Source of the DNA: Pseudobdellovibrionaceae bacterium
Lineage (GTDB): Bacteria > Bdellovibrionota > FAC87 > UBA2466 > JACKAF01
Assembly (NCBI GenBank): GCA_020635235.1
Contig: JACKAF010000003.1
Coordinates: 76,051-140,050 of the forward strand
DNA length: 64,000 nucleotides
Reading direction: 5' to 3'
Part shown: one piece after another, positions 4,961 to 36,301 of the stretch
Layout of the letters: each line of letters starts with the position of its first letter
Numbering within the stretch: position 1 is the first letter of the stretch
Program-made: the position numbers and the translations under genes
Notes under the pieces: generated by a model
The model's database searches: none
Seen by the model: only the letters and a program-made list of their open reading frames with translations
Told to the model about the DNA's origin: nothing

Positions 4961-4984
4961 AAACCAAGCTTTAGAAAAGACAGT

Positions 4985-6708: not shown

Positions 6709-7354
6709 CGCCGAACGCCCGTACGAATCTCGCAAGCTGAACCCTCAGCGATTGGAAGCGGTGAGAAAACATGGGGGTGAGTCGGTATTGGATGTCGGTT
6801 GTGGAAACGGAACCTACGTTTTCGCGCTGAAAAACGAGAAACAGATCCGTGGGGTGGACTACCGTTTCTATGAGGAATGGAAAACCGCTCCGGAGTTGTT
6901 TGAAGTTGCTGAGGCGGACGCGCTAAAAGAGTACGCAAACGATAGCATTGATACGATCGTTTCCTTTGAGACTCTCGAACATCTCCCTGATCCGGAGAAA
7001 GCTCTTCGAGAATACCATCGGGTGTGCCGCCACAATATCGTTGTAACGGTTCCCAACTGTGCGATCACCCCGGGAATTAAAAAAAGCAATTTGCTCTACT
7101 CCCACTGGAGCGATCCGTCCCATCTAAACTTTTTTACATTGGATTCTTTGAAAGCCCTCATTGAAAGTGCGGGTTTTTCCATAAAAGAAGCGCACTACAT
7201 TAACCGCTTGGACGTGAGGCCCTTCGTATTGGAAGCGTTCAAGCTGCGGGGACCTTTAGCGAAGGTCCTATCGAAGGTCCTGCGACTTCTGCCGTCCGAA
7301 TCTTATTTCATCACCTGCCTCGTTGTGGCGGAAAAGCGAGCCCAAGGTGCTTAA
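6695..7354 (+). CDS. class I SAM-dependent methyltransferase
   Basis: ORF 6626..7354 carries motif I VLDVGCGNGTY. The in-frame TTG at 6695 is preceded by AGGGGG, which avoids an 83-nt overlap with the previous gene. Confidence 0.65.
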   Translation: MELISAERPYESRKLNPQRLEAVRKHGGESVLDVGCGNGTYVFALKNEKQIRGVDYRFYEEWKTAPELFEVAEADALKEYANDSIDTIVSFETLEHLPDPEKALREYHRVCRHNIVVTVPNCAITPGIKKSNLLYSHWSDPSHLNFFTLDSLKALIESAGFSIKEAHYINRLDVRPFVLEAFKLRGPLAKVLSKVLRLLPSESYFITCLVVAEKRAQGA

Positions 7355-17984: not shown

Positions 17985-18779
17985 CTAGCCTCCCTGACCT
18001 GCATTTTGAGTTCCGCGATCTTCAAAATAGTAGGCCAGGATTTCGGAATCCTTCCACTCCTGGATGTTTTCGGGCTTTGCGAATTCGGCGCTACGTACCA
18101 CACGCTCCGCGGGCAACAAAACGGAGAGCCGTCGATCGGCCCACTGAATAGAGGTCACCATGACCGTTGGCACAATACGCATTTCGCTCTTGAACCACGA
18201 CCCTGTGTTTACAACCAAATGGAGGAGATGACCGTTCTCAAGATCAAGGATCACATCCTCCACTTTTCCCACACGTTGACCGAGACCTTCCATGTGGTAC
18301 CCACAGATTTCATCCACGCTACGTAAGTGAGCCTCTTTCTTTTTTAGCCTCTTCTCCAAGGTCTCTGCGACCGGAACGGGCAAGTCTTCTCCGGGCATTC
18401 GATAGGGGTATAGGCGGATCGGGCTGATGGTGTCTGGGACCCAATATTGGGGCCAGCCATAATATCGGTGGAGTGCGTCCTCAAGCTGACGGGAAACCGG
18501 TTTTGCCATGTCAGCATTTGGGGCCGCCTGCACGTGCTCGGCGTTGAGTGCGAAGTCAATCACTCGGTCCGCTCTGTCAATTCCGCTCAGCGCGAGAGGG
18601 GAGAGCAGAACTTTTTTTCCCGGCAGCCATTTGTGGGTATCTACGACAAAGTAACGGGCCATCCAATGAATATCATCGAAGTAAATATCCTGAAGTTTAC
18701 CGAGAATTTTATTGTCGGACGTGCGGATATGGTAATCCCGAAGAGTCGAAAAAAACTCAATGTTCCTATTTTCGTACAT
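17985..18779 (-). CDS. PRC-barrel domain protein (two repeats)
   Basis: Two segments fit the PRC-barrel pattern: KLGKLQDIYFDDIHWMARYFVVDT and RVGKVEDVILDLENGHLLHLVVNT. AGGAGG lies upstream of the ATG. Confidence 0.6.
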   Translation of the reverse strand: MYENRNIEFFSTLRDYHIRTSDNKILGKLQDIYFDDIHWMARYFVVDTHKWLPGKKVLLSPLALSGIDRADRVIDFALNAEHVQAAPNADMAKPVSRQLEDALHRYYGWPQYWVPDTISPIRLYPYRMPGEDLPVPVAETLEKRLKKKEAHLRSVDEICGYHMEGLGQRVGKVEDVILDLENGHLLHLVVNTGSWFKSEMRIVPTVMVTSIQWADRRLSVLLPAERVVRSAEFAKPENIQEWKDSEILAYYFEDRGTQNAGQGG

Positions 18780-18824: not shown

Positions 18825-18840
18825 TGCAAAGCGAGTGCCA
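18825..18840 (-). promoter_or_regulatory. sigma-54 promoter (-24/-12) for the PRC-barrel gene string
   Basis: Minus strand reads TGGCAC-TCGCT-TTGCA with exact GG-N10-GC spacing, about 45 nt upstream of the ATG at 18779. Confidence 0.6.
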
Positions 18841-18910
18841 CTGCGGCTGGAAAACTCAGGCACGGCCGTGCTACAGTTTGTGCCCTTTGGTTACGAGGAA
18901 GTTGCGCTTT

Positions 18911-18926
18911 GTAACCAATTTGTTAC
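18911..18926. promoter_or_regulatory. palindrome GTAAC-N6-GTTAC, candidate activator (UAS) site
   Basis: GTAACCAATTTGTTAC lies about 70-85 bp upstream of the 18825..18840 promoter, in the divergent region next to the activator gene. Confidence 0.25.
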
Positions 18927-18987
18927 AGTGGGCCCGTTTTTTAGCGATGGTGAAGGGCATTTCAGCGGTTTTTATGGAGGTAAGTGC

Positions 18988-20400
18988 TTGCCACCCTTAA
19001 ATATTTCCCAATATTCCGGTCAAATCCTTGTGGTTGACGATGATCCCATCGTTTCGAAGGCCATTGAAACAGAACTGGAAAAAGTTGGCTTTAGAGTAAG
19101 CCGCGCAAGTTCTTTCAGCGAAATGTGGGAGCGATTGGGTGAGCGCGTCTACGACGCTATTTTGCTCGATCTTTTTCTGGACGGGGAAGACGGCCTGCAA
19201 GAGTTGCCGGCGATAGTGCGAGAGTGTCCGTTTAGCAAAGTAGTGGTGATGTCCTCCTATGGCACTGTAGAGGTCGTAGTAGATGCAATGGAGATGGGTG
19301 CCACAACCTTTGTCAGTAAATCCGATGATCTGCGCGAAGTCGTTGCTTCGTTGAAAGAGCGCCTTTTGGGCAGTGTTCTTCCGGCCGACGAATATGTGAA
19401 CGTTGCCGATGGTACCCCACTTGGCATCATCGGTCGAAGCCCCGCCGTCCAAAAGCTGCTCGCGAAAATTAATCAGGTAAAAGATGTGGATTCTACGGTT
19501 CTGATAACGGGAGAATCGGGTACGGGCAAGGAGCTGGCAGCGCGCGCCATTCATCGCACCTCGATCCGGCACAAGAATCGCTTTGATGCGATCAACTGTG
19601 CTGCGATACCGGAAAATCTGCTGGAGTCTGAGCTCTTTGGGCACCGCCGGGGTGCCTTTACCGACGCAAAAACGGATCGCAAAGGGCTCTTCGAACTTTG
19701 CTCCGAAGGGACGCTGTTCTTGGACGAGGTAGGAGAGCTCCCGCTTCACCTGCAGGTTAAGTTGTTGCGTGCTCTCCAAGAGAAGGAAATTACCCCGCTC
19801 GGTTCAAGTACGTCTATTCCGGTAAACACACGAATTGTCGCAGCCACCAATAGACACCTTGTCGACCTTGTTCGCGACAGAATGTTCCGTGAAGATCTCT
19901 TTTATCGTCTAGCCGTCCTGCATATCGAATTGCCGCCCTTACGGGATCGGCGGGACGATATCCCGCTTCTGACGGAGCACTTTGTGCAAAAGTTTTGTAA
20001 GCGGTTTTCACGCAGGATTGCTCCCCCATCTGCAGAATTGCTTGCCCGTCTTCACGCCTACCACTGGCCCGGCAATGTACGTGAATTACAAAATGCCGTA
20101 GAGCGTGGGGTTGTTCTGGCGCGCACGGAAGATCTGCGATTTGAAGATATGTTCGACTCCGAGCTCCGTCCCGATCTCCGCGAGGCATCGGGAGCAGGCG
20201 GCGCGCAGCACCAGGAGGCGTTTTGGACGCACCCGCTTTCTGAAGCCAAGCAAGAATTCGAAAAAGAATACCTGAAGCATCTATTGGAGCAGACGCGGGG
20301 AAACATCTCCGAAGTCGCTCGCATCTCTGGTCGATACCGTACCGATGTCTACCGACTGCTATCCAAACACGGTGTTGATTGGGAAGACTTCCGTCCTTAG
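18988..20400 (+). CDS. sigma-54-dependent response regulator (NtrC family: REC + AAA+ + Fis-type HTH)
   Basis: REC (ILVVDDD...LLDLFL), Walker A GESGTGKE, sigma-54 contact loop GAFTDA (variant of GAFTGA), and a C-terminal HTH. The in-frame TTG at 18988 is preceded by GGAGG. The longer ORF start at 18835 would overlap the divergent sigma-54 promoter. Confidence 0.9.
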   Translation: MPPLNISQYSGQILVVDDDPIVSKAIETELEKVGFRVSRASSFSEMWERLGERVYDAILLDLFLDGEDGLQELPAIVRECPFSKVVVMSSYGTVEVVVDAMEMGATTFVSKSDDLREVVASLKERLLGSVLPADEYVNVADGTPLGIIGRSPAVQKLLAKINQVKDVDSTVLITGESGTGKELAARAIHRTSIRHKNRFDAINCAAIPENLLESELFGHRRGAFTDAKTDRKGLFELCSEGTLFLDEVGELPLHLQVKLLRALQEKEITPLGSSTSIPVNTRIVAATNRHLVDLVRDRMFREDLFYRLAVLHIELPPLRDRRDDIPLLTEHFVQKFCKRFSRRIAPPSAELLARLHAYHWPGNVRELQNAVERGVVLARTEDLRFEDMFDSELRPDLREASGAGGAQHQEAFWTHPLSEAKQEFEKEYLKHLLEQTRGNISEVARISGRYRTDVYRLLSKHGVDWEDFRP

Positions 20401-22339: not shown

Positions 22340-22355
22340 TGGTACCATCTTTGCA
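22340..22355 (+). promoter_or_regulatory. sigma-54 promoter candidate for the SOD-family gene
   Basis: TGGTAC-CATCT-TTGCA with exact spacing, about 55 nt upstream of ATG 22411. Confidence 0.45.
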
Positions 22356-22410: not shown

Positions 22411-23070
22411 ATGTCTTATGAGGCGCGTGACTACACGCATTTGCTTGGCAATCTTCCAGGATTCAGTGATGAACAGCTGAAAGCTCACCTCGAACTCTAC
22501 CGAGGCTATGTAAAAGGCACGAACGAAATTATCGACAAATTGGAAAACCGCGATAGAAAGGCGGCTGCCTACGCGTTTGGTGAGTACAGCGAGTTGAAGC
22601 GTCGGTTACCAGTGGCTTACAACGGCATGTGGTTGCACGAGTTGTACTTTGACAATCTAAAACCAGATGTCGATGACGATGGCAGCTTCAGAGAGGCAGT
22701 CCAGAAACAGTGGTCTAGTGTAAAAGATTGGAAAGAAGGTGTTGTTGCGACCGCCAAGACCGGGCCCGGTTGGGTGATTACAGCTCTGGAACAGACAACG
22801 CACCAACTGCGGACCGTCTTCGTTGCCGAACACCATATAGGATGGATGGCTAACCACACACCAATCATGGTTCTCGATATGTGGGAACACGCCTACATGA
22901 TCGATTTTGGGATAGAAAAAACGGCCTACCTAAATGCTTTCATGGAGAACCTAAATTGGGAGATTCTTGACCGGCGCTACAGAGCTGCCGCGGCGGAGGT
23001 TCACAAAAACGTCAGTGACGCCCCGAGAAATCTAAACTACGTTCACGCGGCAGGAGGCGGAATAGGCTAA
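22411..23070 (+). CDS. Fe/Mn-family superoxide dismutase
   Basis: Metal-ligand contexts KAHLELY, WLHELYF and DMWEHAY. AAGGAGG lies upstream of the ATG. Confidence 0.8.
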   Translation: MSYEARDYTHLLGNLPGFSDEQLKAHLELYRGYVKGTNEIIDKLENRDRKAAAYAFGEYSELKRRLPVAYNGMWLHELYFDNLKPDVDDDGSFREAVQKQWSSVKDWKEGVVATAKTGPGWVITALEQTTHQLRTVFVAEHHIGWMANHTPIMVLDMWEHAYMIDFGIEKTAYLNAFMENLNWEILDRRYRAAAAEVHKNVSDAPRNLNYVHAAGGGIG

Positions 23071-24167: not shown

Positions 24168-24359
24168 TTAGTGGCTTTCACCGGTGGCTTCGTCCATTTC
24201 TTCACCGGCGGCTTCGCCCGCTTCCTTCATGGCGTCGCCGGCTTCTTCAACGGCATTCTCCATATGTTCTTCCGCTTTTTCGGCCGGACTCTTCTTCACG
24301 CAAGCCGGAAAAGCAGAAAGGAATAACAGACCAACTAGGCTAACCAGAACCATCTTCAT
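24168..24359 (-). CDS. small acidic secreted protein / probable lipoprotein
   Basis: ATG 24359 is preceded by AGGAGG. Sequence is MKMVLVSLVGLLFLSAFPAC followed by an E/A-rich tail; 63 aa. Confidence 0.55.
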   Translation of the reverse strand: MKMVLVSLVGLLFLSAFPACVKKSPAEKAEEHMENAVEEAGDAMKEAGEAAGEEMDEATGESH

Positions 24360-24652
24360 AAGTAGTAACCTCCTAATAGTAGCCCTTAAGCAAACTGGTT
24401 TTGCACAAGGAGCGCACATTCTATATCACGTTTTTTCATCGATGAAAGAGACATTCTGAGACCATCGAGGTCCCATTTGGTTCTCGGGCGTGTCCGATTT
24501 CCTAAGCCGCAGAGACTGGCTTGGCCTTAGGCCCAAGGATTGACAACCTGAGTCGATCCACGCTCTCATCAAGGTAGCCGTTCAACTTGAAAATCGGTCG
24601 GGAGCGCGAGGTTGTCGTGATGCGCCCCGGTCGGGCACTACCAGGGGGACTC

Positions 24653-26101
24653 ATGCGTCTGCTTTCGCGTTTGTTGTTTGTAGCTTTGTGCTTTGGTGCG
24701 TTTGCACCTCTGCTCCGGGCACAGAATGCCGCCCGCGAGTTTTACAGCGAATATAGTCGTCCCAACGACGATCGTTTCCAAAATGCTGCGGGTGGATCGG
24801 GAGAGCCTTACGAAGTTTCGCGAATTCGCATCACACTCGTTGCTACCCCTACCAATAATGGCCACCAATTAAGTCTGCGTTGGGTCTCCAAGATGGTGAC
24901 CGGCCGACACGTCGAGGCCGGTAAGCACGTGGTGCTGCGGGAGTCTCGCAGCAGCCTGAAAGGTGAAACCGAGATCTTGGATCCCGGAAGGCGCAAAGAA
25001 GAAGTTATCCGAGACCTTGAGATCGTTTACCCGAAGGGAGTGGACGCCAACTCATCAATTGAGGACAAGATTGGGAGCGAGCTGAAAACCTCGCTCGTTT
25101 TGGGTGAAGTGACCGAGGACGGCGAATACTCTGGCGATCTTCAAATGCGTACCCGCGCTTCTCAGAAGGGAGATTTGATTACAGAGAGCTCACAAGGTGT
25201 AACCCATTTTGTCGGACAGAAGGTTTCCGTATTTCACAACATTAGCTGGAAGGTAAAAATTGAAAACGGCAAGGCAATTGACGGCGAGGTTAAGGCCGCC
25301 CGCCCGACCGTGCCGCAACTGAAGCTTGTGGATAGCAACTGCTTGTATTGTGATTCGGAACTCAAAGAAAATCAGCCCTACCCCAAGCAGCCCAAAGCCG
25401 CCAAGTGCAAAAGCGAAACCGTAGGGCACAAGGGCGAAGAGATTGCGGAAGAGACCGAGTATGACAAGTTACAAAAGCGTATGGCCAAGCTGATCGACGC
25501 CGCGGGGTGCACCAACTGCCACGGTGAGGGGAGTGCGGCTAATTTTCGCTTTTGTGACGACGGGACTCCAATCTACCCGAAAGAGGATGCCCATAACATT
25601 TACGCGCTACTCACCAACGCCAAAGAAGTGAAGTGGGACCGCTATCCGTCTGGAATGAAGGAGGCAGTAGACGATTTGCGCGAGGCGGAAAAAGAGAGTC
25701 ACTCCATTTCTGCCTGGGCTTACAAGACCGGCGTAGCACCGGGTTTGGACGTGGTCTTCGCAAAAGGAGTGGTGTGTACCTATACCTTGCGGTTTTCTAC
25801 GCTTAGTGGAAAGGCGGTTTACGAAGCGGCAATGGACGCTCCACCTAGCGAGGGGGACTTTAACTCCGCGCTATCGAAATCCTGTTCGGACTGCCTACGC
25901 CAGCTACGCAATAAGAAAATCGAGCTTTTGGACAAGGGAATCTCGTTTGCGTCCTATGGATGCGTTCTCACGCGGGAAAGTTGCCAGGACGCAGCAGCCG
26001 GAACGCGTTTCACAATTGGGTCGCGGTCTTTGCGCAAAGCGCTCGCTAGCGTTGCGGACGAAAACACGGACTTGATTAGCTATTGTCGGACGGACGAATA
26101 A
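24653..26101 (+). CDS. secreted CXXCH-motif protein (paralog A), unknown function
   Basis: ATG 24653 is preceded by AGGGGGA. It has a signal peptide (LLFVALCFGAFAPLLRA) and a single CTNCH motif. It is collinear with 32803..34206. Confidence 0.7.
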   Translation: MRLLSRLLFVALCFGAFAPLLRAQNAAREFYSEYSRPNDDRFQNAAGGSGEPYEVSRIRITLVATPTNNGHQLSLRWVSKMVTGRHVEAGKHVVLRESRSSLKGETEILDPGRRKEEVIRDLEIVYPKGVDANSSIEDKIGSELKTSLVLGEVTEDGEYSGDLQMRTRASQKGDLITESSQGVTHFVGQKVSVFHNISWKVKIENGKAIDGEVKAARPTVPQLKLVDSNCLYCDSELKENQPYPKQPKAAKCKSETVGHKGEEIAEETEYDKLQKRMAKLIDAAGCTNCHGEGSAANFRFCDDGTPIYPKEDAHNIYALLTNAKEVKWDRYPSGMKEAVDDLREAEKESHSISAWAYKTGVAPGLDVVFAKGVVCTYTLRFSTLSGKAVYEAAMDAPPSEGDFNSALSKSCSDCLRQLRNKKIELLDKGISFASYGCVLTRESCQDAAAGTRFTIGSRSLRKALASVADENTDLISYCRTDE

Positions 26102-26270
26102 GTAGGTTCGTGGAATCTTTCCTAGAGTCGGTGAACCAGTCCGATGTTTGCGAGAGAGCTTTGTTTGATACCGCTCCCAGAAAGTAATGGGTTTTGTCTT
26201 TCTCCGCGGCTTCTAGTGAGAACGGAGTGGACATCGCCGCCCAACAGAGCAAAACCAACAAAACTTTCAT
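26076..26270 (-). CDS. small secreted hypothetical protein
   Basis: ATG 26270 follows GGGGG. Signal peptide MKVLLVLLCWAAMSTPFSLEA. It overlaps the 3' end of paralog A convergently; weak call. Confidence 0.3.
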   Translation of the reverse strand: MKVLLVLLCWAAMSTPFSLEAAEKDKTHYFLGAVSNKALSQTSDWFTDSRKDSTNLLIRPSDNS

Positions 26271-26359
26271 TTTTTCCCCCATTGAAAAAGTGTACCCCCC
26301 GTGTGCCGGGGATACAAAAATTCTTTCTCTTTTCAAGCATACCAGTGTAACTCCATTGG

Positions 26360-27292
26360 ATGGGGGAAAAAGACGCCATTCTGATTAGTAAAGAACTCAA
26401 AAAGAATTACGGCAAACTCGTCGCTGTAGACGGGGTTTCGCTTGAAATTCAACCGGGCCAGTGTGTCGGGCTTTTGGGGCCCAACGGCGCAGGAAAATCG
26501 ACATTTATAGGCATGGTCTACGGGGCGACACCCCGCTCCGGTGGCGAACTAAGTGTTTTTGGTTTGGATCCTCAGACAAATAGCCGCGACATCAAGAAGC
26601 GAGTCGGGGTCGTAACGCAAGAAGACTGCTTGGACGAGGCCATGACCGTTCAAGAAAACATGTCAATGTTTGCCCGCTTTAGCGGCGTCCCAAGCCACGA
26701 GATAGAAAGGCGGGTGCGCAAGCTCTTGGAGTTTATGGCGCTTGATCACAAGAGAGACGCTTCCATTCGGGCGCTCTCAGGTGGAATGAAGCGGCGCTTG
26801 GTCTTTGTGCGAGCGTTGCTGGCGCAGCCTGAGCTCATTATTCTAGATGAACCCACTACGGGTCTCGATCCGGCGGTAAGGCACTTGCTTTGGGAAAAAG
26901 TGTTGGAGCTCAAAGAGGCCGGCACCACTATCCTATTGACGACGCATTATATGGATGAGGCAGAAAGGCTTTGTGAGCGGCTCATAATTATGGACCAAGG
27001 CAAGATTCGTGAAGACGCTCCCCCGCGGGAACTGATTGAGCGGCATTGTCCCGGATACGTGGCTCATTTCAGGAATCGGGAAGTGGGCAACACGCTACAC
27101 CATTACCTGAGTGAGCACCCGGAAGGTGTCGTGTACGAAGATTCTGCTGGGGTCGGTGTAAGAGGTCCAGACTTACCTTGGATTAGTGCAATGGTTTCAA
27201 AAATTGAAACCGCACCCGAAGTAGTACGTCCCGCGAATTTGGAGGATGTTTTTTTGAAAATTACTGGAAGAGGGCTTGGCAGCCATGCTTGA
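26360..27292 (+). CDS. ABC transporter ATP-binding protein (ABC-2/DrrA/NodI-like)
   Basis: Walker A GPNGAGKST, signature LSGGMKRR, Walker B IILDEPTTGLD. Confidence 0.9.
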   Translation: MGEKDAILISKELKKNYGKLVAVDGVSLEIQPGQCVGLLGPNGAGKSTFIGMVYGATPRSGGELSVFGLDPQTNSRDIKKRVGVVTQEDCLDEAMTVQENMSMFARFSGVPSHEIERRVRKLLEFMALDHKRDASIRALSGGMKRRLVFVRALLAQPELIILDEPTTGLDPAVRHLLWEKVLELKEAGTTILLTTHYMDEAERLCERLIIMDQGKIREDAPPRELIERHCPGYVAHFRNREVGNTLHHYLSEHPEGVVYEDSAGVGVRGPDLPWISAMVSKIETAPEVVRPANLEDVFLKITGRGLGSHA

Positions 27293-28052
27293 GACCTTCT
27301 CACTGTCGTGGCGGGTTGCTGTTCGTCACTGGTTGATCTTTCGCAAGGATCTCTTTGCGAATGTTTCTCCCACCATTATTGATCCGACACTCTTTCTGAT
27401 TTGTTTAGGATTGGGTCTCGGAGCTTACGTTAACCAAGTAGAAGGGCTCAGTTACGCCAGATACGTGGCACCCGGCTTAGCAGTCTCTACTGCGCTTTTC
27501 ACCGCTTTTTTTGAGTGCTCTTATAACTTCTATGTCCGCTTGACCTTCGAAAATATTTACAAGGCTATCCTTACGACACCCATTGGTCCGCGCGAGATAC
27601 TTTTTGGTGAATTTATCTGGATAGTGCTCAAAGGAATGGGGATGACCTCGATGGTTACGCTTTGGTTGGTTGTTTTCGGCTTTTGCCATTGGGAGTATGC
27701 GCTGCTGATGCCGATTCTAGGAGGACTCGTTTCTTTTGCCTGCGGGGCATTGGGGCTCATTGCGAGTTCGCTCGTAAAAAACATCAACCAGTTCCAAACA
27801 GTTTACAGCCTGGTTATCAGTCCGATGTTTTTCTTTTCGGGGATTTTCTTTCCCATCAAAGATCTCTTTTGGCCGCTGCGCTGGCTCGCCAATTTATCCC
27901 CGTTCTACCATGGTGTGAGTCTAGGTCAGCATATACTTTGGGCGCGTGAATTGGGTGTGGGTCTGGCCATTCACGGTTCCGCCCTGCTTGCCTTGTCGTT
28001 CTTGCTAGGCGCCATTGCGTACCGGCGTGTGCACCCGCTACTGTACAAATAG
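27285..28052 (+). CDS. ABC-2 type transporter permease (NodJ/YadH-like)
   Basis: ATG 27285 overlaps the ATPase stop. It has 6 hydrophobic spans. Confidence 0.8.
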   Translation: MLETFSLSWRVAVRHWLIFRKDLFANVSPTIIDPTLFLICLGLGLGAYVNQVEGLSYARYVAPGLAVSTALFTAFFECSYNFYVRLTFENIYKAILTTPIGPREILFGEFIWIVLKGMGMTSMVTLWLVVFGFCHWEYALLMPILGGLVSFACGALGLIASSLVKNINQFQTVYSLVISPMFFFSGIFFPIKDLFWPLRWLANLSPFYHGVSLGQHILWARELGVGLAIHGSALLALSFLLGAIAYRRVHPLLYK

Positions 28053-28177
28053 AGGCGGCTCCGCCAGCGCTTATCTAATATGCCGAGCTTACTAGGTTTT
28101 TACTTCTACCTCCCTTTTTGAAGACTTCGCTAACGAACCGCGTTAGGGTGGGTCCGTTGAGCTACCAACGACGAAAA

Positions 28178-29170
28178 ATGAAACTATTCTTGCTGGTTCT
28201 AATTTTTTTGGGGATCTTGGGCGTAGGCTTTTTCGCGGGTCACTATACGGCCAATTTGGGGAAACCGGCCGATCGCCACCCGGTCCGAATTGCGGAGGTC
28301 GGCATTCCGGAAGGCGCGCTGCTTTACGTAGCGTATGCCAAGGACTTTTTCGACAGTGAGGGAAATGCAGTAACGCTTACTCCCTATGTTGCGGGTAGGG
28401 ATGCGCTCCAGGCGCTTGTGGAAGGCAAGGCGGATGTTGCAACTGTTGCCAACACGCCGATTGTTCACAATGCGCTCGAGGGCAAGCGGTTCAAGGTGCT
28501 CGCTACATTGGGGACGTCCCGGGTAATGGGAATTATGGCCGACCGCAAGTTGGTTGCCAGTCCCGCGGATCTGATTGGGAAAAGAATTGGGGTTCCATTT
28601 GATACAGCAGGCGAATATTTTTTGGATCTGCTTCTGGCTCGCTACAATATCCCGGCTGAAAAAGTCTTCCGAGTGAACGTGGATCCGAACGGCATGTTGA
28701 GTGCCCTGCTGCAGAATAGAATTCAGGCTGCCGTGACATGGAATCCCTACATCAGCCAAATCCGCCAGGCCTTTGGCAAAGGTTACGCTTTTTATTCCGG
28801 CGATGAATTTTACGTCCTCTCTTGGAACTTGGTCGCCACTGAAGCCTTTGCCTCAGATACGCGCAGATCAAGCAGTTTGTTAAGAGCTTTTGATCGTGCG
28901 CGCGAGTTTATGGAAAGCTCGCCAGAGGAAGCCAAAATTTTGGTTTCCAACGCTTTGCGAGTTGAAAATCGACTTTTGGATCCTTACTGGCCCGATATGG
29001 AATTTGATACAACCCTCGATCAAAGCTTGATTCTAGCGATGGAAGCGCAAGCCCGATGGTATGCGCAGAAAGAACGCTACAAAGGTCAGGCCGTTCCCAA
29101 CTTTCTGGATTACCTGAGTTTAGATCCCCTGACACAGGTCAGTCCCGAAAAAGTAGGTGTGATTCGTTAG
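28178..29170 (+). CDS. membrane-anchored periplasmic solute-binding-like protein (NMT1/SsuA/PhnD-type fold)
   Basis: ATG 28178 (MKLFLLVLIFLGILGVGFF). An alternating alpha/beta SBP-like pattern (GRDALQALVEGKADVATVANTP..., GKRIGVPFDTAGEYF). The stop lies 2 nt before the kinase start. Confidence 0.65.
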   Translation: MKLFLLVLIFLGILGVGFFAGHYTANLGKPADRHPVRIAEVGIPEGALLYVAYAKDFFDSEGNAVTLTPYVAGRDALQALVEGKADVATVANTPIVHNALEGKRFKVLATLGTSRVMGIMADRKLVASPADLIGKRIGVPFDTAGEYFLDLLLARYNIPAEKVFRVNVDPNGMLSALLQNRIQAAVTWNPYISQIRQAFGKGYAFYSGDEFYVLSWNLVATEAFASDTRRSSSLLRAFDRAREFMESSPEEAKILVSNALRVENRLLDPYWPDMEFDTTLDQSLILAMEAQARWYAQKERYKGQAVPNFLDYLSLDPLTQVSPEKVGVIR

Positions 29171-29172
29171 CT

Positions 29173-31467
29173 ATGAGACACTTGGGGCGCACAATTGATT
29201 CCAAGCTGCGGTACGCGACTGCACTCATCCTTGTCCTCGCGCTCACGTCGATAGGGTTGATGTATGTCTCTCTGCACTCCCTTTCTGAAGAGCGACAGCG
29301 AGTAAGCACGGCGAGGCGGATCACTAAAGGGGTCTTCGAACTTACCATTTTGGCGAAGGATTATATTACCAGCCCCTCTGAGCGGGCTGCGAAGCAGTGG
29401 AACGATCGGGTAAATTCCATCCAGCACTTGGTGGAACGCACGCGATCTTTCCCCGGTAGCCAGAGGGTTGGCGATAGACTTCGGGATGGCCTCTTAGAAA
29501 TGAACTCAGCATTCAGTGAACTGAAGTTTCTTTCTAAGAAAGTTTCTGCGGCCGAGTCGGGATCCGGGGCGGCGGCGCGGCTTGCGCAACTCGAAATCTC
29601 TTTGGTTTACATGGGGCACCGAACGTCGGGTCTTGCAAAGCAGATCGCCGATGCCACCGAGGAGAGAGCGGAGGCGCTTGAAGGCCAGGCATTTTATGTA
29701 GTTGTTTTGACATCCCTGCTCCTGTCCGCGTTCATCGTGGCTCTGCTTCTAGTGATTCGTTTTCGTCTCAGGGACTCTTTCGCGGCGCTGCTTGAGTCCA
29801 TTCAAATGGTTACCGATGGCAAGTCGTCGAGGCGACAACGATGGGAGTTTGGTGAGGACGAAATCGGCACGTTGTTCAGCAAGTTTCAGGAGATGTCCGA
29901 AAAAATCGAATCCCGCTACTCGAAATTGGTTTTGGAATTGAGGGAAGCGAAACAGAAGGCCGACGCTGCAAACCAGGCCAAAAGCAATTTTCTCGCAAAT
30001 ATCAGCCACGAAATTAGGACTCCTCTGTCTGTTATCGATGGCTATTCCACCCTGCTTAGGGAAGGCAACGACGACGAAAAGACCGAAAGCTTGGCCAAGA
30101 TCCATTGGAACGTTCGCTACGCTACCAACCTTATCAACGATATTCTAGACCTCGCTAAAATTGAGTCGGGAAAGCTAAAGGTACTCAAAGAAAGTGTCGT
30201 CCTAAAACGCGAGCTTCCAATAATATTAAGTAGCTTGCGCGATCGCGCGATGGCGAAGGGACTGGTTTTCAGAGCCTCGGTGGAAGGAACCATCCCGGGG
30301 ACCATCTTCACCGATAAGATGAAGTTGGAACAGATCCTCCTAAACCTCGTTGGAAATGCCATCAAATTCACCGAAAAAGGCGAAGTGACTGCAGTGTTTT
30401 CGTTGGACGAGGAAGGCAAGCTACGGGTTCTAGTCTCGGATACGGGCATAGGACTAACCCCCGAGCAGGCCAAATGCCTTTTTGCGCCGTTTTCACAGGC
30501 CGATCCCTCTATTACCCGACGGTTTGGTGGAACTGGATTGGGGTTGGTTCTCTCGAGGCGAATGGCACGTCTATTGGGTGGGAACGTTAGCCTGGTGAGA
30601 AGCGAACCCGGCGAAGGCTCCTCATTTTTGTTCGAGCTCGATCCAGGGAGCCTCGAGGGCGTCGAAGGTATTACGGAATTGAGTGAGGACCTTAGTTACG
30701 TCAAGACGGAAAGACGTCCAGATGAAGGAGAACTCTATGGCTTGAGACTTTTACTGGCCGAAGACAACGAAGACCTACGGGATTTGTTTCGTGTGCGGCT
30801 GGAGTCCGCGGGGGCTAGTGTTCTTATTGCAACAAATGGTCGTGAAGCTGCTGAAGCAGCGATGGATCCTACGCGTAATTTTGATCTTATCTTGATGGAT
30901 ATTCAGATGCCTGAGATGGATGGTTACACAGCGACAAAGTTGCTGCGGGAAAGTGGAGTTCAGATACCTATCGTTGCGTGTACGGCAAGATTGATGAAGG
31001 AAGAGCGCATACGTGGGGCGGAGGTAGGAATGTCCGCGTATCTAGAAAAGCCGGTTCAGGTGGATCAGCTGATATCTCTCTGCAGACGCCTGACTCTCGG
31101 GGCTGGGGATGACTCGGCGACATCCAATAAGCTTAGTAGCTATTCCGATTTCCACGGCAATGCTAAGCTACACCCTCTACTGATACAGTTTGCGCGCAGA
31201 GTTCCGGCGTACGAAAAGGAAATTCGAGAAAGTTCCAAGGTAGGAAGCTTGGCCTTTATCCATTCGTTGGATCGCTGTCGCGGGGTGCTCTCAAGTTTTG
31301 GATTTTACGCCGTGGCGGATCGGGTGGCAGAAATAGAGAGTCTGCTGGAAGGCAATCAATCCTCAGAGAGTATTGAAGAACTCGTTCAGCGAATTAGCCT
31401 GGATCTTCAAGCCATCTACAAGACTTACGCCATGGACGAGCGAGGGGCGTCTAACCTGACGCACTAA
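29173..31467 (+). CDS. hybrid sensor histidine kinase (2 TM + HAMP + HisKA + HATPase_c + REC + HPt-like)
   Basis: ATG 29173. H-box SHEIRTPL, N/G boxes (LNLVGNAIKFT, DTGIGL, GGTGLGL), receiver DLILMDIQMPEMDGY, and a C-terminal helical HPt-like tail. Confidence 0.9.
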   Translation: MRHLGRTIDSKLRYATALILVLALTSIGLMYVSLHSLSEERQRVSTARRITKGVFELTILAKDYITSPSERAAKQWNDRVNSIQHLVERTRSFPGSQRVGDRLRDGLLEMNSAFSELKFLSKKVSAAESGSGAAARLAQLEISLVYMGHRTSGLAKQIADATEERAEALEGQAFYVVVLTSLLLSAFIVALLLVIRFRLRDSFAALLESIQMVTDGKSSRRQRWEFGEDEIGTLFSKFQEMSEKIESRYSKLVLELREAKQKADAANQAKSNFLANISHEIRTPLSVIDGYSTLLREGNDDEKTESLAKIHWNVRYATNLINDILDLAKIESGKLKVLKESVVLKRELPIILSSLRDRAMAKGLVFRASVEGTIPGTIFTDKMKLEQILLNLVGNAIKFTEKGEVTAVFSLDEEGKLRVLVSDTGIGLTPEQAKCLFAPFSQADPSITRRFGGTGLGLVLSRRMARLLGGNVSLVRSEPGEGSSFLFELDPGSLEGVEGITELSEDLSYVKTERRPDEGELYGLRLLLAEDNEDLRDLFRVRLESAGASVLIATNGREAAEAAMDPTRNFDLILMDIQMPEMDGYTATKLLRESGVQIPIVACTARLMKEERIRGAEVGMSAYLEKPVQVDQLISLCRRLTLGAGDDSATSNKLSSYSDFHGNAKLHPLLIQFARRVPAYEKEIRESSKVGSLAFIHSLDRCRGVLSSFGFYAVADRVAEIESLLEGNQSSESIEELVQRISLDLQAIYKTYAMDERGASNLTH

Positions 31468-31469
31468 TT

Positions 31470-32219
31470 TTAGTAAAAAGTTCCCGCAACAAAGCGCTTC
31501 AACGGAGAAGGTCGGTGTATAGAGTTTCGGTCGAATCCCCCCTCGTATTCCGAGCGGCTGATCGTAACCCCTGCATAGGGATCGGCGACCAGATCAAAGT
31601 CAGGGAGATACACCCATAAATGCCGACCGACTTCTTCGATTTCTCCGTCCTGCAGTATTGCTTCGATCCCAAGATCATTCAGTAGCCCTGCAAGGATGGA
31701 AGCCCGGTGTCGGCAGTTACCCCGATTGGTGTTGTTTGAGTTCAAGTAGTCTGAGGCGTAGCGGGTTTTTGGAAACCAGCGCCAGTCACCATCTTCATCA
31801 CCGTCCGTGCCGCCGAGCTTTTTCGTGAACATGTCAATGACCGCTCGTGGGTTCTCATCTCGGTTATCTAGGATTTGTAGCTCTTCGTCGTTGAGGCCGC
31901 TGCGGATATTGCCCCAATCCAAATAGATGCCATGACCGACGTGCTCGACGCCAGTCACTTCGCTCTTCACATTGTGATAAACCGCAGGTGAGAGGTAGCC
32001 CAAGGTGATGGCACCTACCGCAGCGAGTGAAATAAGAAATCCGCAACTTCCAAAACGCTTCTTGTTCTTTTTTGTCGGCTTAGTTGGAGCGGTTTTGAGT
32101 TCGATGATCTGACTTTGGGTGGATTCCAAAGTCGCCGGATAAGTTGCGGCGACGACAGAAGTCGGCCGGAACAGGACGCAAAGCGCCCACAAAAGAAGAT
32201 TAAGTTTTCTTGCCCCCAT
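31470..32219 (-). CDS. transglutaminase-like (Cys-His-Asp) domain protein, secreted or membrane-anchored
   Basis: Core triad context GNCRHRASILAGLLNDLGIEA ... GRHLWVYL ... DLVADP. It has an N-terminal signal/anchor. The start is uncertain (32219 or 32246). Confidence 0.55.
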   Translation of the reverse strand: MGARKLNLLLWALCVLFRPTSVVAATYPATLESTQSQIIELKTAPTKPTKKNKKRFGSCGFLISLAAVGAITLGYLSPAVYHNVKSEVTGVEHVGHGIYLDWGNIRSGLNDEELQILDNRDENPRAVIDMFTKKLGGTDGDEDGDWRWFPKTRYASDYLNSNNTNRGNCRHRASILAGLLNDLGIEAILQDGEIEEVGRHLWVYLPDFDLVADPYAGVTISRSEYEGGFDRNSIHRPSPLKRFVAGTFY

Positions 32220-32264
32220 ACCTACGAACCAGCAAGCCACGGGCACTGCGGCTTGTCAATGGGT

Positions 32265-32696
32265 TCAATCGAGCAAAGGGACCTCTATGGGCAGAGCACC
32301 GGCAACTCGGTAGCGTACATCTGTAGGATCAATGAAGAGTTTGTGTGAGTGGCCTGCTACCTCATCTGTTTGTACGTACACGCGCTTAAGTTGCTTGAGG
32401 TCAGCAAAATGTTCTGGAAGCAGAACGAACCGGTGGTTTCGCCCGCCGTGCCCGTGCCAAAATTCCATCTCTACGGGTTCGTTCGCCAGTATGTATTCGA
32501 CCCGTACGATTCCGGTCTTGGGGCCTAGTCCGCCGTCAAAGTACAGCGCCATGGCGTGGGTATCGTAAAGCGTGACTGTACCCTCATGCAGTCCAAATAG
32601 CGTCGATACCTTGGAAGTGTCGTTGCCGCAGCGGTTTAATCCCACGACAACAAATCCAAAACCAATGGCGCGTTTTACGAAGGTGCGTCGGTTCAT
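32265..32696 (-). CDS. Tat-signal small His-rich protein, unknown function
   Basis: ATG 32696 follows GGAG. Twin-arginine motif MNRRTFVKRA. His clusters FWHGHGGRNHRF and AGHSHKLF. Confidence 0.55.
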   Translation of the reverse strand: MNRRTFVKRAIGFGFVVVGLNRCGNDTSKVSTLFGLHEGTVTLYDTHAMALYFDGGLGPKTGIVRVEYILANEPVEMEFWHGHGGRNHRFVLLPEHFADLKQLKRVYVQTDEVAGHSHKLFIDPTDVRYRVAGALPIEVPLLD

Positions 32697-32802
32697 ATGA
32701 GGCTCCACGGAAAGAGAAATGCAGGTTATCTAATGATGATAGACCGTGCGGTGGAGCCCGTCGGTAGGGCGTGTGTAGCTTATCTTAACAGTTGTTACTA
32801 AA

Positions 32803-34206
32803 CTACTCTATGCGGCACAGGGTCGCCGCCTCAGGCTCGTCCAGAGTTGCCAAAGCCCGGCGCAATTCTTTTGGGCTTACCGAGTAGGCTACCCCGTCTG
32901 ATTTGGCAACACAGGCCTCACGTGGCAAAACACATGCGTAGGTCAAAAAAGTACTCGATTCGGATTCCGTGAGTATTTTCTTTTTCTGTTGCAACAACTC
33001 ATTGACACAGTTTCGACAACTCTGAGCGACCGCTTTGGTGATTGTATCTTCGGTTGGGACCGCGTTAAGCCCGGCCTCGTAAAAAACTCTGCCGCTAAGA
33101 TTTCTGAAAACGAGGTTAAAGTCGCACGCTATGCCATCTTTGAAGTTGAAATTTGGGCCAGGAGAGACTCCGTGCTTAAATGCCCATTTAGAGATGACAC
33201 CGCTGTTCTTTTCACTAGCGGTTAGGCGTTCAATGGCGCGCTTCATTCCAGTCGGGTAGTTATCCCAGTTGGTTTCACTTGGGTTAGTAATCAGAGAAAA
33301 AATATTGTGTGAATCTGTTTCCGGAAATATTGGTGTCCCATCGTCGCAAAATCTGAAGTTGTTTTCATTCCCCTCAGCATGGCAGTCGAGGCAACCCGCA
33401 TCCGAGATTAAAGGGGCGAGCTGTTCTGTAAGTTTTTCGATCTCGGTTTTTTTTGTTTCGAGAGTTTCTCCTTCTTTACCCACGATTTCTGATTTGCATT
33501 TGGCCGCTTTTGGTTGATCGGGGTAGGGCTGATTCTCTCGCCTGGTAGAGTCCACCCGAAGCCAGTTGCTCTCGACAAGTCGCATGAGCGGTTCCACAAA
33601 ACGTTGGCACTCAACATTTGCTGAGCGTACCTTCCCATCCACAATCTCGACCCGCCACCGGGCAGTTTGGAAGGCGGAGGCGTTTCGTCCCGTCAGCTGG
33701 CCAATCCCTTGAGTGTTTTCTGCTTCGGTGGATACCCCCTTGCTGCGGATTTGGAGTTCGCCCGCATAGGTTCCGTCCCTTTCTATGGTTCCTAAATCTA
33801 GTTCGGCCGACAGAATGCTGCCTACCTTCCTTTCGACAGAAGATTGGGCGGTGGCGCCTTTCGGATAAATTATTTTGAGATCGACAGAACGTCCGGCCCG
33901 CACGCCGGCAAGATCGGTTTTGTTTTCGAAAAGATGGAAGTAGGAACCAGCCTCAACGTGGCGGCCCGTCGTCATGGACGCCGCCCATTTGAACTTAAGC
34001 TTTACACTGTTGGCGTTCTCCTCGGCATCCAGTGTGACTCGGATACGCGAAACTTCGTAAGGTTCTCCGCTCGCCCCGGCCGCATTTTGAAAGCGGTCAT
34101 CATTGGGGCGACTATAGACGTTGTAGAATTCTTTTGCCGCCGCAGTCGATTGAAAAGAAATACATAAGAATAGAGTGAGATACCCCACCAACCCAAAAAC
34201 GCGCAC
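32803..34206 (-). CDS. secreted CXXCH-motif protein (paralog A'), unknown function
   Basis: GTG start follows AGGGGG. It has a signal peptide and a CLDCH motif. Blocks shared with paralog A: EFY..YSRPNDDRFQNAAG.SGEPYEVSRIR, NQPYP.QPKAAKCKSE, NFRFCDDGTPI. Confidence 0.7.
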   Translation of the reverse strand: MRVFGLVGYLTLFLCISFQSTAAAKEFYNVYSRPNDDRFQNAAGASGEPYEVSRIRVTLDAEENANSVKLKFKWAASMTTGRHVEAGSYFHLFENKTDLAGVRAGRSVDLKIIYPKGATAQSSVERKVGSILSAELDLGTIERDGTYAGELQIRSKGVSTEAENTQGIGQLTGRNASAFQTARWRVEIVDGKVRSANVECQRFVEPLMRLVESNWLRVDSTRRENQPYPDQPKAAKCKSEIVGKEGETLETKKTEIEKLTEQLAPLISDAGCLDCHAEGNENNFRFCDDGTPIFPETDSHNIFSLITNPSETNWDNYPTGMKRAIERLTASEKNSGVISKWAFKHGVSPGPNFNFKDGIACDFNLVFRNLSGRVFYEAGLNAVPTEDTITKAVAQSCRNCVNELLQQKKKILTESESSTFLTYACVLPREACVAKSDGVAYSVSPKELRRALATLDEPEAATLCRIE

Positions 34207-34348
34207 CCCCGGCCCCCTAACGACGACTATAGTCCAGCATTCCGATGCCGCGGAAATCTGAACATGCCTAAGTCAATACTTTGAGAATTTGCGACCCAAC
34301 GCGATTTGTCAACGGGGCGCGGCATGGAGCGCGGCTTTTGGCGGGCAT

Positions 34349-34390
34349 AAAAAAAGCCCTCTTACAACGCCTTGTAAGAGGGCTTTTTAT
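34349..34390. terminator. strong bidirectional intrinsic terminator not attached to any CDS
   Basis: A7, a 13-bp perfect stem AGCCCTCTTACAA/TTGTAAGAGGGCT with a 4-nt loop, then T5. Both flanking genes are transcribed away from it. Confidence 0.7.
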
Positions 34391-34653
34391 TGCAACTAGG
34401 AGTCATGGAATCTAACGATTTCTTATATTCTCTCAGGCTTGCCTCTCGATCGGCACCCATAGGAGTGACGCGAAAGCGCCTTTCAGTAAGTATTTGAAAT
34501 TGCTTGTATAATGCGGTTTCCGCTCGTGGGGAGCGCCCGGTGCCGGCCTTGGGAGAAGGGAAATCCCTGGTGGAGGGCCCCAATACGGTGTATTAACAGA
34601 GATTAAGCCCGAAGTTTTGCAGTTAATCGCCTTTATCCAAGAGGACAAATACT

Positions 34654-35136
34654 TTGAGTATCAAAAAAAATTCTGTGGTTTCGATCTCCTACGTTCTCAC
34701 CAATGATGCTGGTAAGCAGCTGGACGCCTCTCCGAAGGACGAACCGCTTACCTACCTCCACGGAGCGGGCAATATTATTAGAGGACTGGAGACGGCCCTG
34801 GAGGGTCAAACCAAGGGCGAAAAAATGAAGATCAGTGTCCCTCCTGAAGAGGCCTATGGTCTTCGCGATGAGGCATTAGTGCAGTCCATCCCGCGGGATC
34901 GGTTTCCCGATGCCAGCGAAGTCAAAATTGGGGCCCAATTCCAGGCAAGTACTGAGAACGGTCCCGTCTTGCTCACCGTTACGGACATTCGGGACAACCA
35001 GGTGACGGTTGATGCCAACCACCCGCTTGCCGGTTCCACGCTTCATTTCAACGTGGAAATCGTAGAGATTCGGGAAGCCACGGCTGAGGAGCTGCAGCAC
35101 GGTCACGTCCACGGACCCGACGGCCACCACCACTAG
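34654..35136 (+). CDS. slyD: FKBP-type peptidyl-prolyl isomerase / metallochaperone SlyD
   Basis: Collinear with E. coli SlyD (YLHGAGNIIRGLETALEG, VDANHPLAGSTLHFNVEIVEIREAT). His-rich tail HGHVHGPDGHHH. TTG start follows AAGAGGA. Confidence 0.85.
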   Translation: MSIKKNSVVSISYVLTNDAGKQLDASPKDEPLTYLHGAGNIIRGLETALEGQTKGEKMKISVPPEEAYGLRDEALVQSIPRDRFPDASEVKIGAQFQASTENGPVLLTVTDIRDNQVTVDANHPLAGSTLHFNVEIVEIREATAEELQHGHVHGPDGHHH

Positions 35137-35243
35137 ACGGCGTCTGACAAATTTTCCCAATTCGTATTCCGTGCCTTGCCAGAATTCGGCGGGCCTGCGC
35201 GGCGACGTTGTCGTTTGACGCCGCTTGGGCTAAGTTTACACCC

Positions 35244-35669
35244 ATGCGTGGTCCGCACTTTCTTTTTGCAGCCTGGGTTTTGAGTGCAATGGGTACATTT
35301 GGCAGCCTTTTTTTTAGCGAGGTCATGCAGTTTGCTCCTTGTACGCTGTGCTGGTACCAGCGCATCTTTATGTACCCGTTGGTTGTTACCCTCGCTGTAG
35401 GCTATGCGTGCCAGGATCCCCGGGTGTACCGTTATAGTATGCCGCTCGTTCTTTTGGGATTGATCGTTGCCGTTTATCACAACCTTTTGTTTTACGGAGT
35501 CATTCCTGCAAGCTTGGCGCCCTGTACGCAGGGAGTTTCCTGTACGGAAGCGCAGCTGGAAGGTTTTGGTTTCGTTAGTATCCCGCTGCTTTCTTTGGTG
35601 GGATTTGTCTGTTTGGCTACACTCCTGCAACTCTTTAAGAATCGAGGAACGTCATGGGCTCTAAACTAA
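35244..35669 (+). CDS. dsbB: disulfide bond formation protein B (BdbC-type)
   Basis: GSLFFSEVMQFAPCTLCWYQRIFMYPL is the CxxC region typical of BdbC/DsbB. It has 4 TM spans. The start is 35208 or 35244. Confidence 0.75.
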   Translation: MRGPHFLFAAWVLSAMGTFGSLFFSEVMQFAPCTLCWYQRIFMYPLVVTLAVGYACQDPRVYRYSMPLVLLGLIVAVYHNLLFYGVIPASLAPCTQGVSCTEAQLEGFGFVSIPLLSLVGFVCLATLLQLFKNRGTSWALN

Positions 35670-36301
35670 AACCTGTTTTGCTGACAACCGTGTTGCTGGT
35701 TGCGGTCTTTGCCGGCGGCAGCCTTTGGTACAAAGCTTCGCAGCAGGCAAAGCGCGAAAAGGCCATCGCAGAAACCAAAGATCTACTCGAACGACCGGAA
35801 AGCCCTTTTATGGGCCCTTCCGATGCACCGGTGCGCGTGGTGGAGTTCTTGGATCCAGAGTGCGAAGCCTGCGCCGCGTTTTATCCGGTAGTGAAGATGG
35901 TTCTAAAGGACTATCCGAACCAGATTAAATTGATTGTCCGCTACCTTCCGCTGCACGGGAACTCGGCCTACGCGGCGTCCATTTTGGAAGTCTTGCGTGC
36001 GAGAGGGAAGTTTTGGGAAGGTCTGGAGATGTTCTTCGCAAAGCAACCGGAGTGGGGAGACCATCAGACCCCGAAACCGGAGCTCCTCAAAACCTACGCG
36101 GCGGCATTGGGTGTGAGCAACGAAGAGCTCGAGGCGGCGCTTAAGGATTCTATGTACATGAACCATGTGAAACAGGATCATTCTGACGCTCGGGCTTTGG
36201 GTGTTCGGCGTACGCCCACCTTTTTTGTAAACGGCAAGCCACTAGAAGATCTCAGCTACAAGGCCTTGAAAGAAATGATTGGTCGAGAACTAGCGGAATA
36301 G
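35654..36301 (+). CDS. DsbA-family thiol:disulfide oxidoreductase (BdbD-like)
   Basis: N-terminal anchor and thioredoxin-fold active site FLDPECEACAAFYP. It overlaps the dsbB end. Confidence 0.8.
   Translation: MGSKLKPVLLTTVLLVAVFAGGSLWYKASQQAKREKAIAETKDLLERPESPFMGPSDAPVRVVEFLDPECEACAAFYPVVKMVLKDYPNQIKLIVRYLPLHGNSAYAASILEVLRARGKFWEGLEMFFAKQPEWGDHQTPKPELLKTYAAALGVSNEELEAALKDSMYMNHVKQDHSDARALGVRRTPTFFVNGKPLEDLSYKALKEMIGRELAE

Follow-up and report, generated by a model that had tools for sequence, protein, structure and literature searches.

The DNA analysed here, referred to as the window, is a stretch of 64,000 nucleotides from a Pseudobdellovibrionaceae bacterium (assembly GCA_020635235.1, contig JACKAF010000003.1, positions 76,051 to 140,050), and the subject of the analysis is a pair of related genes that face each other within it. 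Paralog A (P0002, 482 residues, NCBI H6617_07215) lies on the plus strand at 24653..26101, and paralog B (P0001, 467 residues, NCBI H6617_07255) lies on the minus strand at 32803..34206. The coordinates of both open reading frames (ORFs) are exact, and both proteins matched database entries (100% for paralog B), which NCBI labels as hypothetical proteins of a Bdellovibrionaceae metagenome-assembled genome (MAG). The initial annotation, made from the sequence, had described the two as collinear paralogs. BLASTP indeed aligned them end to end with 45% identity over 477 columns (E 6e-151), a similarity far beyond chance. The blocks listed there as shared, EFY..YSRPNDDRFQNAAG.SGEPYEVSRIR, NQPYP.QPKAAKCKSE, and NFRFCDDGTPI, as well as a single CXXCH motif (CTNCH in A and CLDCH in B), are present in both proteins. 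So are the signal peptides, which can be read from the sequences as hydrophobic N-termini with AxA-type sites; the AlphaFold2 (AF2) model of P0002 has an N-terminal helix at residues 2–21. According to the AF2 model, the signal peptide of paralog A (residues 1–23) is followed by a beta-rich domain (approximately 28–250), a cytochrome-c-like module (approximately 266–358), and a Cys-rich C-terminal domain (approximately 362–482). The corresponding parts of paralog B, delimited by the AF2 model and the alignment to A, are approximately residues 1–24, 25–236, 252–344, and 348–467.

The two genes are ancient, lineage-specific duplicates under purifying selection. Over the whole genes, the proportion of nonsynonymous differences (pN) is 0.37 and that of synonymous differences (pS) is 0.80; the saturation of the latter indicates that the duplication is old. 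In a neighbour-joining tree, P0001 was grouped with P0002 and P0003, the ortholog of P0002 from a second, sister MAG (locus L006), in 179 of 200 bootstraps, and this grouping places the duplication inside this lineage, before the split of the two MAGs. P0003 is 83% identical to P0002, with a pN of 0.10 against a saturated pS of 0.83, which shows that both copies are real genes under purifying selection and agrees with the earlier view that both are maintained. The claim that their DNA had diverged mostly at synonymous positions holds in the conserved blocks, where block 1 has 22 differences at third codon positions versus 11 at the first and second positions, and where just 41% of the identical residues are encoded by the same codon. 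Overall, however, 55% of the residues differ. At the DNA level, inverted repetition between the loci is confined to the two coding blocks that are best conserved (75–76% complementary). The most conserved of these, the EFY..YSRPNDDRFQNAAG.SGEPYEVSRIR block, which is the hallmark motif of the beta domain, lies at 34025..34131 on the minus strand in paralog B (inverted repeat I1, 76% complementary) and at 24737–24843 on the plus strand in paralog A.

Relatives of the pair are scarce. Scans of the whole paralogs against Pfam (E ≤ 0.1) and NCBIfam matched no family. A word-indexed search of 5.8 billion clusters found nine proteins including the two queries, and an exhaustive profile search with HMMER across 1.84 billion representatives found 23. 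Scanning one genome per species for 185,579 species yielded five loci, and 241 million metagenome records yielded one. The hosts of the five genome loci are a member of Bdellovibrionota, a member of Pseudobdellovibrionaceae, and three MAGs, of which two carry the label 'Pseudomonadota' and one the label 'Elusimicrobia'. We conclude that the family to which the pair belongs is very rare and uncharacterised, that its members are envelope proteins exported by the Sec pathway, and that it has its centre in Bdellovibrionota.

In the cytochrome-c-like module, the CXXCH motif, the proposed site of covalent heme attachment, occupies residues 286–290 of paralog A (25508..25522, plus strand; His290 is the proposed proximal ligand) and residues 272–276 of paralog B (33379..33393, minus strand). 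It is kept in 16 of the 16 members that cover the region, and its two cysteines are the only ones in P0009 and P0011. When 15 divergent modules are compared, invariance is limited to the columns of the two cysteines and the histidine of the motif (C272, C275, and H276 in P0001 numbering), one glycine, and a methionine. This methionine lies in a 'YPxGM' sequence 45 residues after the histidine (from His276 to Met321), with a nearly invariant proline three residues before it. It is the proposed distal ligand, corresponding to Met335 in paralog A (25655–25657, plus strand) and to Met321 in paralog B (33244–33246, minus strand). The module as a whole is about 90 residues long and has a Gly/Pro element approximately 14–16 residues after the CXXCH.

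Profile searches with this module pointed almost exclusively to c-type cytochromes. Against all PDB sequences, 56 of the 58 matches at E ≤ 10 were of this type (best E 0.009), and the alignment to yeast iso-1-cytochrome c was full-length, placing YPxGM on the Met80 loop within one residue. The module consensus matched only PF00034 and PF13442 in Pfam, the PF00034 match spanning positions 4–78 of the 90 in the model. When the 15 modules were submitted individually, eight weakly matched Cytochrome_CBB3 and three Cytochrom_C (best E 0.0028 and 0.0046, respectively). HHalign of the module against cytochrome c551 gave an E value of 7.5e-5, with only the stretch comprising the helix and the CXXCH aligned. 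Two AF2 models were built. The first, from nine sequences, was confident in the N-terminal beta-rich and C-terminal alpha/beta domains and poor around the CXXCH. The second, of P0002 with 19 sequences (pLDDT 82.9, pTM 0.69), reached a pLDDT of 82–92 in the CXXCH region and showed a helix at 269–283, then the CXXCH, and then helices at 309–321 and 335–349. In this model, a helix thus precedes the CXXCH and another begins at the methionine, an order that would fit a cytochrome c fold, with N- and C-terminal helices packing around the heme. The constancy of the CXXCH, the invariant methionine, and the sub-threshold matches to c-type cytochrome profiles lend support to the c-type heme site suggested in the initial annotation. 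The accompanying guess of a PSCyt-type domain was not borne out, because no PSCyt model of Pfam was matched by the modules or their consensus even at E ≤ 10.

The other cysteines behave differently from those of the CXXCH. Cys237 and Cys287 (P0001 numbering) are both present in 12 members and both absent in four, and no member has only one of them. This paired presence and absence fits a disulfide that staples the 'PYPxQPKAAxC' linker to the heme module. The loss of this pair in four members, while the CXXCH is always kept, indicates that the CXXCH cysteines are never dispensable. The Cys-rich alpha/beta domain, which contains six cysteines, is C-terminal only in the Bdellovibrionota trio. An hmmsearch found homologs of it as extensions at the N-terminus in P0010 (E 6.5e-7) and P0004 (E 1.1e-4). 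The difference in position leads us to regard it as a movable accessory domain.

Several observations weigh against a heme-binding module. The scores of the cytochrome c models are below their curated cut-offs (16.4 bits versus 21.3, and 12.4 versus 27), so that neither the consensus nor any of the modules reaches the Pfam gathering threshold for PF00034 or PF13442, and the whole proteins match neither at E ≤ 0.1. The HHalign comparison with horse cytochrome c was insignificant (E 0.015), and again only the helix and the CXXCH were aligned. A Foldseek search with the good model returned no cytochrome c among the top 50 matches, which were dominated by the beta domain, and heme itself is not modelled by AF2. 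No Ccm or Ccs genes for cytochrome c maturation were found within the 64-kb window. Finally, the beta domain occurs without any CXXCH module in the distant relatives P0020 and P0023–P0026, which implies that its activity does not always depend on heme.

Some of these points would be expected if the CXXCH were a redox-active dithiol or a Zn/Fe-binding motif within a structural helical linker, the proteins themselves being non-redox envelope proteins (with a binding, adhesion, or structural role) defined by the beta domain. The sub-threshold scores of the cytochrome c models, the lack of a cytochrome c fold among the Foldseek matches, and the existence of the beta domain alone elsewhere are all compatible with such a motif, as are the abundance of probable disulfides in the rest of the paralogs and the presence of DsbB-family and thioredoxin-like genes next to paralog B. 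A disulfide, however, would not require the histidine and the methionine 45 residues further on, which are as invariant as the cysteine pair, and a zinc site normally needs a fourth conserved ligand, of which there is none. The cysteines outside the motif come and go in pairs whereas the CXXCH is constant, and the weak matches are almost exclusively to c-type cytochromes, one of them over the full length. We therefore consider a non-heme CXXCH rather unlikely. Judging from the conservation pattern and the profile matches, the module probably binds heme and most likely behaves like a monoheme cytochrome c of class I with His/Met ligation, short of formal Pfam membership.

The explanation we favour overall, with a probability of roughly 60%, is that paralogs A and B are old duplicates of a rare three-module envelope family that contains a monoheme cytochrome c module, and that no cassette of other genes is inherited together with them. 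Under this explanation, both proteins would be exported by the Sec pathway and heme would be attached in the periplasm. The CXXCH would provide the two thioether bonds and the proximal histidine, and the methionine of 'YPxGM' would be the distal ligand, followed by the C-terminal helix. Such a His/Met heme would pass electrons one at a time between a partner, either soluble or part of the respiratory chain, and the target of the beta domain. In this scheme we infer that heme is bound, that a histidine and a methionine ligate it, that the disulfide forms, and that electrons are transferred, and periplasmic electron transfer is the most likely role.

The beta-rich domain starts directly after the signal peptide with YSRPNDDxFQN...GEPYEV and later contains TGRHVE. 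In the first motif, R, N, D, D, and N hardly vary, not even among the distant members that consist of the beta domain without the heme module. Foldseek searches with the two AF2 models against PDB and with the better model against BFVD gave no match with E < 1e-3. In PDB, no significant structural neighbour of the beta domain was found (best E 6e-3, with TM scores of 0.10–0.16), and nothing significant was found in BFVD. A profile search with an alignment of the beta domain alone added one new sequence and no annotated relatives, and neither the consensus nor the sequences of the beta domain and the C-terminal domain matched Pfam. Two identities that appeared among the structural matches, a DOMON-like domain (ethylbenzene dehydrogenase gamma subunit, 2ivf_C) and the leukocidins, were rejected as insignificant. 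The beta domain is thus novel, with no detectable sequence or structural relatives.

Among the distant relatives that have only the beta domain, P0024 (L012, 10001..10726) opens with NLYEYARGQVTRASDPYGL, a sequence similar to the end of an RHS core, and contains a Cys-rich insertion, CRRGLCPGCKGKCPGCG. Its contig has many split genes, suggesting sequencing frameshifts. One reading is that the beta domain acts as a secreted effector or toxin when the bacteria prey or compete, with the heme module as an accessory. This beginning of P0024, the hosts, which are mostly predators of the Bdellovibrionota type, and the beta-pore-forming leukocidins among the weak top Foldseek matches would be in keeping with it. 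The leukocidin matches, however, have TM scores of 0.10–0.16 and probabilities of at most 0.2, no RHS/YD gene or domain lies upstream of P0024, and we found no conserved immunity-like gene and no match to a PADLOC-type or toxin family in Pfam. A toxin module is consequently the least probable of the readings considered here, and we regard it as highly doubtful. The more specific possibility of an RHS or polymorphic-toxin C-terminal domain was likewise rejected: the DPYGL-like string occurs only in P0024, the frame upstream of which is the antisense of an NHL-repeat gene, and in the window paralogs the beta domain follows a signal peptide directly and not an RHS core.

The 6.7 kb between the paralogs is occupied by two convergent strings of genes, each headed by one of the paralogs. 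Downstream of paralog A, on the plus strand, a NodI/NodJ-like ABC-2 exporter (26360..28052; ABC_tran and ABC2_membrane in Pfam, with NCBIfam matches) consists of an ATPase (26360–27292) and a permease (27276–28052). It is followed by a membrane-anchored NMT1/SsuA-like binding protein (28118–29170) and a BarA/TorS-like hybrid histidine kinase with HisKA, HATPase_c, Response_reg, and weak Hpt domains, both assigned by Pfam and NCBIfam. The kinase gene ends at 31467 and probably starts at 29173, a position deduced from the ortholog in the sister MAG, whose match begins right after the gene for the binding protein. On the minus strand, paralog B is followed 94 bp downstream by a gene for a 147-residue Tat-signal (lipo)protein (Tat147; 32265..32708) and then by the last gene of the string, encoding a secreted protein of 258 residues (31470..32246). 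The initial annotation had named the exporter, the binding protein, the hybrid kinase, and the His-rich Tat protein correctly. Its term 'transglutaminase-like' for the 258-residue protein comes from a Cys/His/Asp motif (GNCRH...GRHLWV...ADP) read by eye; the protein matched nothing in Pfam, NCBIfam, or PDB, including Transglut_core.

Two minor ORFs flank paralog A. An 86-residue ORF on the minus strand (26076..26336) lies in the gap between paralog A and the ATPase gene and has an internal start resembling a signal peptide, MKVLLVLLCWAAMSTPFSLEA. This gap is 258 bp in the window and 58 bp in the sister MAG, and the shorter gap implies that the ORF is probably not conserved. On the other side, between the gene for an AI-2E transporter and paralog A, an 83-residue acidic lipoprotein-like ORF on the minus strand (24168..24419; ...LSAFPAC... 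with a Glu/Ala-rich tail) is 92% identical over 51 residues in the sister MAG. The hybrid kinase, a single ORF in the window (29173..31467), is represented in L006 (14323..16616) by two overlapping calls of 178 and 596 residues in different frames; the split is a frameshift or an assembly error there.

The initial annotation had proposed a single functional island, made up of the pair and the 6.7 kb between, that would serve to sense redox state or metals in the periplasm or to modify the envelope; on this reading, the cytochrome-like proteins would work with the products of the enclosed genes. In its favour, the arrangement is kept in the second MAG in spite of saturated synonymous sites, all the products are envelope-associated, and a paralog stands first in each string. 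When all the cassette proteins were compared with 16 loci by tblastn, matches were found only in the sister MAG L006, so that the ABC, kinase, and transglutaminase-like genes do not otherwise travel with homologs of the pair. The synteny between L006 and the window also reaches equally into unrelated flanking genes upstream (those for a sigma-54 regulator, a 628-residue protein, a superoxide dismutase (SOD)-like protein, and AI-2E), which marks it as plain synteny not specific to an island. None of the six genes (for the ABC ATPase, the ABC-2 permease, the binding protein, the kinase, the transglutaminase-like protein, and the Tat protein) was found within up to 10 kb of family members in seven other lineages (L001, L003, L004, L013, L015, L016, and L020), the neighbours there having no relationship to the cassette or among themselves. 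Such scattering of homologs, with no conserved neighbours, is what the initial annotation itself had named as evidence against an island. The 258-bp gap after paralog A also argues against one, as do the flat G+C content across the region, with no island signature, and the lack of DNA-level repeats bounding the region apart from the coding blocks. A conserved downstream gene in the distant homologs, for which neighbours of 316, 324, and 289 residues were considered, was rejected because all three are unrelated. The island is accordingly largely refuted and very improbable. The intervening genes are ordinary neighbours and not a co-inherited cassette, and the geometry of the inverted pair has no special meaning. 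For genome scanning, this is a caution that an eye-catching inverted pair may be two old paralogs heading convergent strings, and not a mobile or functional island.

Among the neighbours, Tat147 is the one for which a connection with paralog B was considered further. It belongs to a broader, uncharacterised family with 39 homologs, in which the twin arginine is nearly invariant and five histidines (FWHGHGGxxH...HxH) are invariant. Most of them have Cys-Gly after a lipobox-like L/V-x-x site, and the window copy has an atypical 'LNRCG'. The Tat signal and the five histidines suggest a metal centre, and a PDB sequence search with Tat147 gave no match. The homolog in locus L017 is overlapped upstream by the gene for a 459-residue CXXCH protein, and the gene for a 146-residue CXXCH protein lies 5 nt downstream. 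In all, three secreted proteins with a single CXXCH (459, 146, and 433 residues; 4632..6011, 6461..6901, and 8143..9444) are encoded around it. The 459-residue protein was examined as a distant member of the family and rejected, as it is not homologous (HHalign probability 0.8%) and has no Pfam match. An atypical Fe/Mn-SOD-like protein with a strong Sod_Fe_C match and a weak N-terminal domain is encoded upstream of paralog A (22411..23070), and L017 carries a homolog with 50% identity (7022..7666) beside the Tat147 homolog and the three CXXCH proteins. The same two uncharacterised families, SOD-like and Tat147, thus recur near cytochrome-like genes in two distant genomes.

Paralog B may work with Tat147, which would be a metalloprotein with the cytochrome module as its electron donor or acceptor, a proposal that would refine the preferred explanation of old cytochrome-bearing duplicates and is compatible with it. 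The two genes are adjacent and on the same strand, the Tat signal together with five invariant histidines is typical of proteins that carry cofactors, and the L017 homolog is surrounded by the three CXXCH proteins and the SOD-like gene. Against this, no CXXCH protein is encoded next to the homologs in L018 and L019, and a Tat147 gene lies near none of the other members of the cytochrome family. Tat147 proteins are also far more common than those of the cytochrome family, and the sample amounts to four loci. A redox partnership between Tat147 and P0001 is therefore a tentative possibility, to be taken as a lead and not as a finding. A bolder and less likely version, in which we place little confidence, is that the YSRPNDD beta domain is an unknown catalytic or ligand-binding fold driven by the His/Met heme c. 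The family would then represent a new type of oxidoreductase or redox sensor of the periplasm, occurring essentially in predatory Bdellovibrionota only and perhaps acting with the five-His Tat lipoprotein.

Just upstream of paralog B and divergent from it lie three genes (34654..36301). The first encodes a SlyD-like isomerase of the FKBP type whose tail is rich in His (34654..35136), the second a BdbC-like disulfide oxidoreductase of the DsbB family (35208..35669), and the third a lipoprotein that resembles thioredoxin and has a CxxC (35654..36301). The location of a disulfide-forming pair beside paralog B, which is predicted to hold four disulfides, may be a coincidence. The regions upstream of both paralogs and of the ortholog (24420..24652, 34207..34653, and L006 9708..10000) share a GTTGACAA box approximately 110–120 nt before the start codon, which may be the -35 element of independent promoters. 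A scan of the region for sigma-70 promoters and terminators performed no better than on shuffled sequence, no sigma-54 promoter was found upstream of the paralogs, and Rfam and tRNA scans gave no match in the region. Elsewhere in the window, a perfect sigma-54 -24/-12 consensus, TGGCACTCGCTTTGC, is located on the minus strand at 18826..18840, just upstream of a PRC-barrel-like gene (17985..18779), where it overlaps the start of a divergent sigma-54 activator gene (18835..20400, plus strand). A sigma-54 site with one mismatch precedes the SOD-like gene (22340..22354, plus strand). Further upstream, a two-gene module is duplicated in tandem at 3168..6708, the products being 319 and 278 residues and then 307 and 267 residues long, with clearly similar N-termini (MVKHTVFIHTN../VRKPTVYIHTN.. 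and MKSVAELNNLHPGADIYVIGTG../MKRVSELYGKHQGDAIYVVGSG..).

Comparison with known systems places the family closest to the class I c-type cytochromes (PF00034 and PF13442; for example, mitochondrial cytochrome c and Pseudomonas c551). These share the Sec-type export, the helix leading into a single CXXCH, the methionine preceded by proline, and the C-terminal amphipathic helix, and profile searches with the module led to these families and structures only. Unlike them, the family has its module between a novel beta domain of 210 residues and a Cys-rich domain, a putative extra disulfide to the upstream linker, and sub-threshold Pfam scores. In copper nitrite reductases fused to cytochrome c and in subunit II of caa3 oxidases, a beta-sandwich precedes a monoheme cytochrome c, which delivers electrons to the adjacent domain. 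The architecture of the family, a beta-rich domain and then a probable monoheme module, may be comparable, but it has no cupredoxin or copper-ligand motif and no Pfam match. The heme-b beta-sandwich of the ethylbenzene dehydrogenase gamma subunit and DOMON-like proteins (2ivf_C) was the top Foldseek match of the first AF2 model and ranked 13th with the second. This match is insignificant (E 0.03–0.04, TM 0.13–0.23, root-mean-square deviation > 11 Å), and conserved Met/Lys heme-b ligands are not identifiable in the family.

The nearest precedent is TfcP of Myxococcus xanthus. This cytochrome c of the periplasm is noncanonical, with a distal cysteine and a potential of approximately -310 mV, and has been repurposed for the stabilisation of PilY1 (PMC8833165). 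Like the paralogs, TfcP has a Sec signal, one divergent single-CXXCH domain with an extra C-terminal region, and a predatory host, and it was recognised by weak similarity and modelling. It thus sets the example of a divergent, Sec-exported cytochrome c with a single CXXCH and a non-respiratory job in a predator. In contrast to TfcP, the family has an invariant distal methionine in place of cysteine, and this canonical ligand predicts a higher potential. TfcP is also small and has no beta domain, and there are no pilus genes near the paralogs described here.

The practical value of these observations is modest until a phenotype, a partner, or a substrate is known. If heme binding holds, its confirmation would establish a new c-type cytochrome family for which neither Pfam nor NCBIfam has a model, one in which a divergent heme module of class I is joined to a beta domain that resembles nothing known and to a Cys domain that has been shuffled. 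The fact that the family is almost confined to Bdellovibrionota-like bacteria, for which the envelope and the periplasm are central to predation, suggests that it could mark a redox process specific to this lineage.

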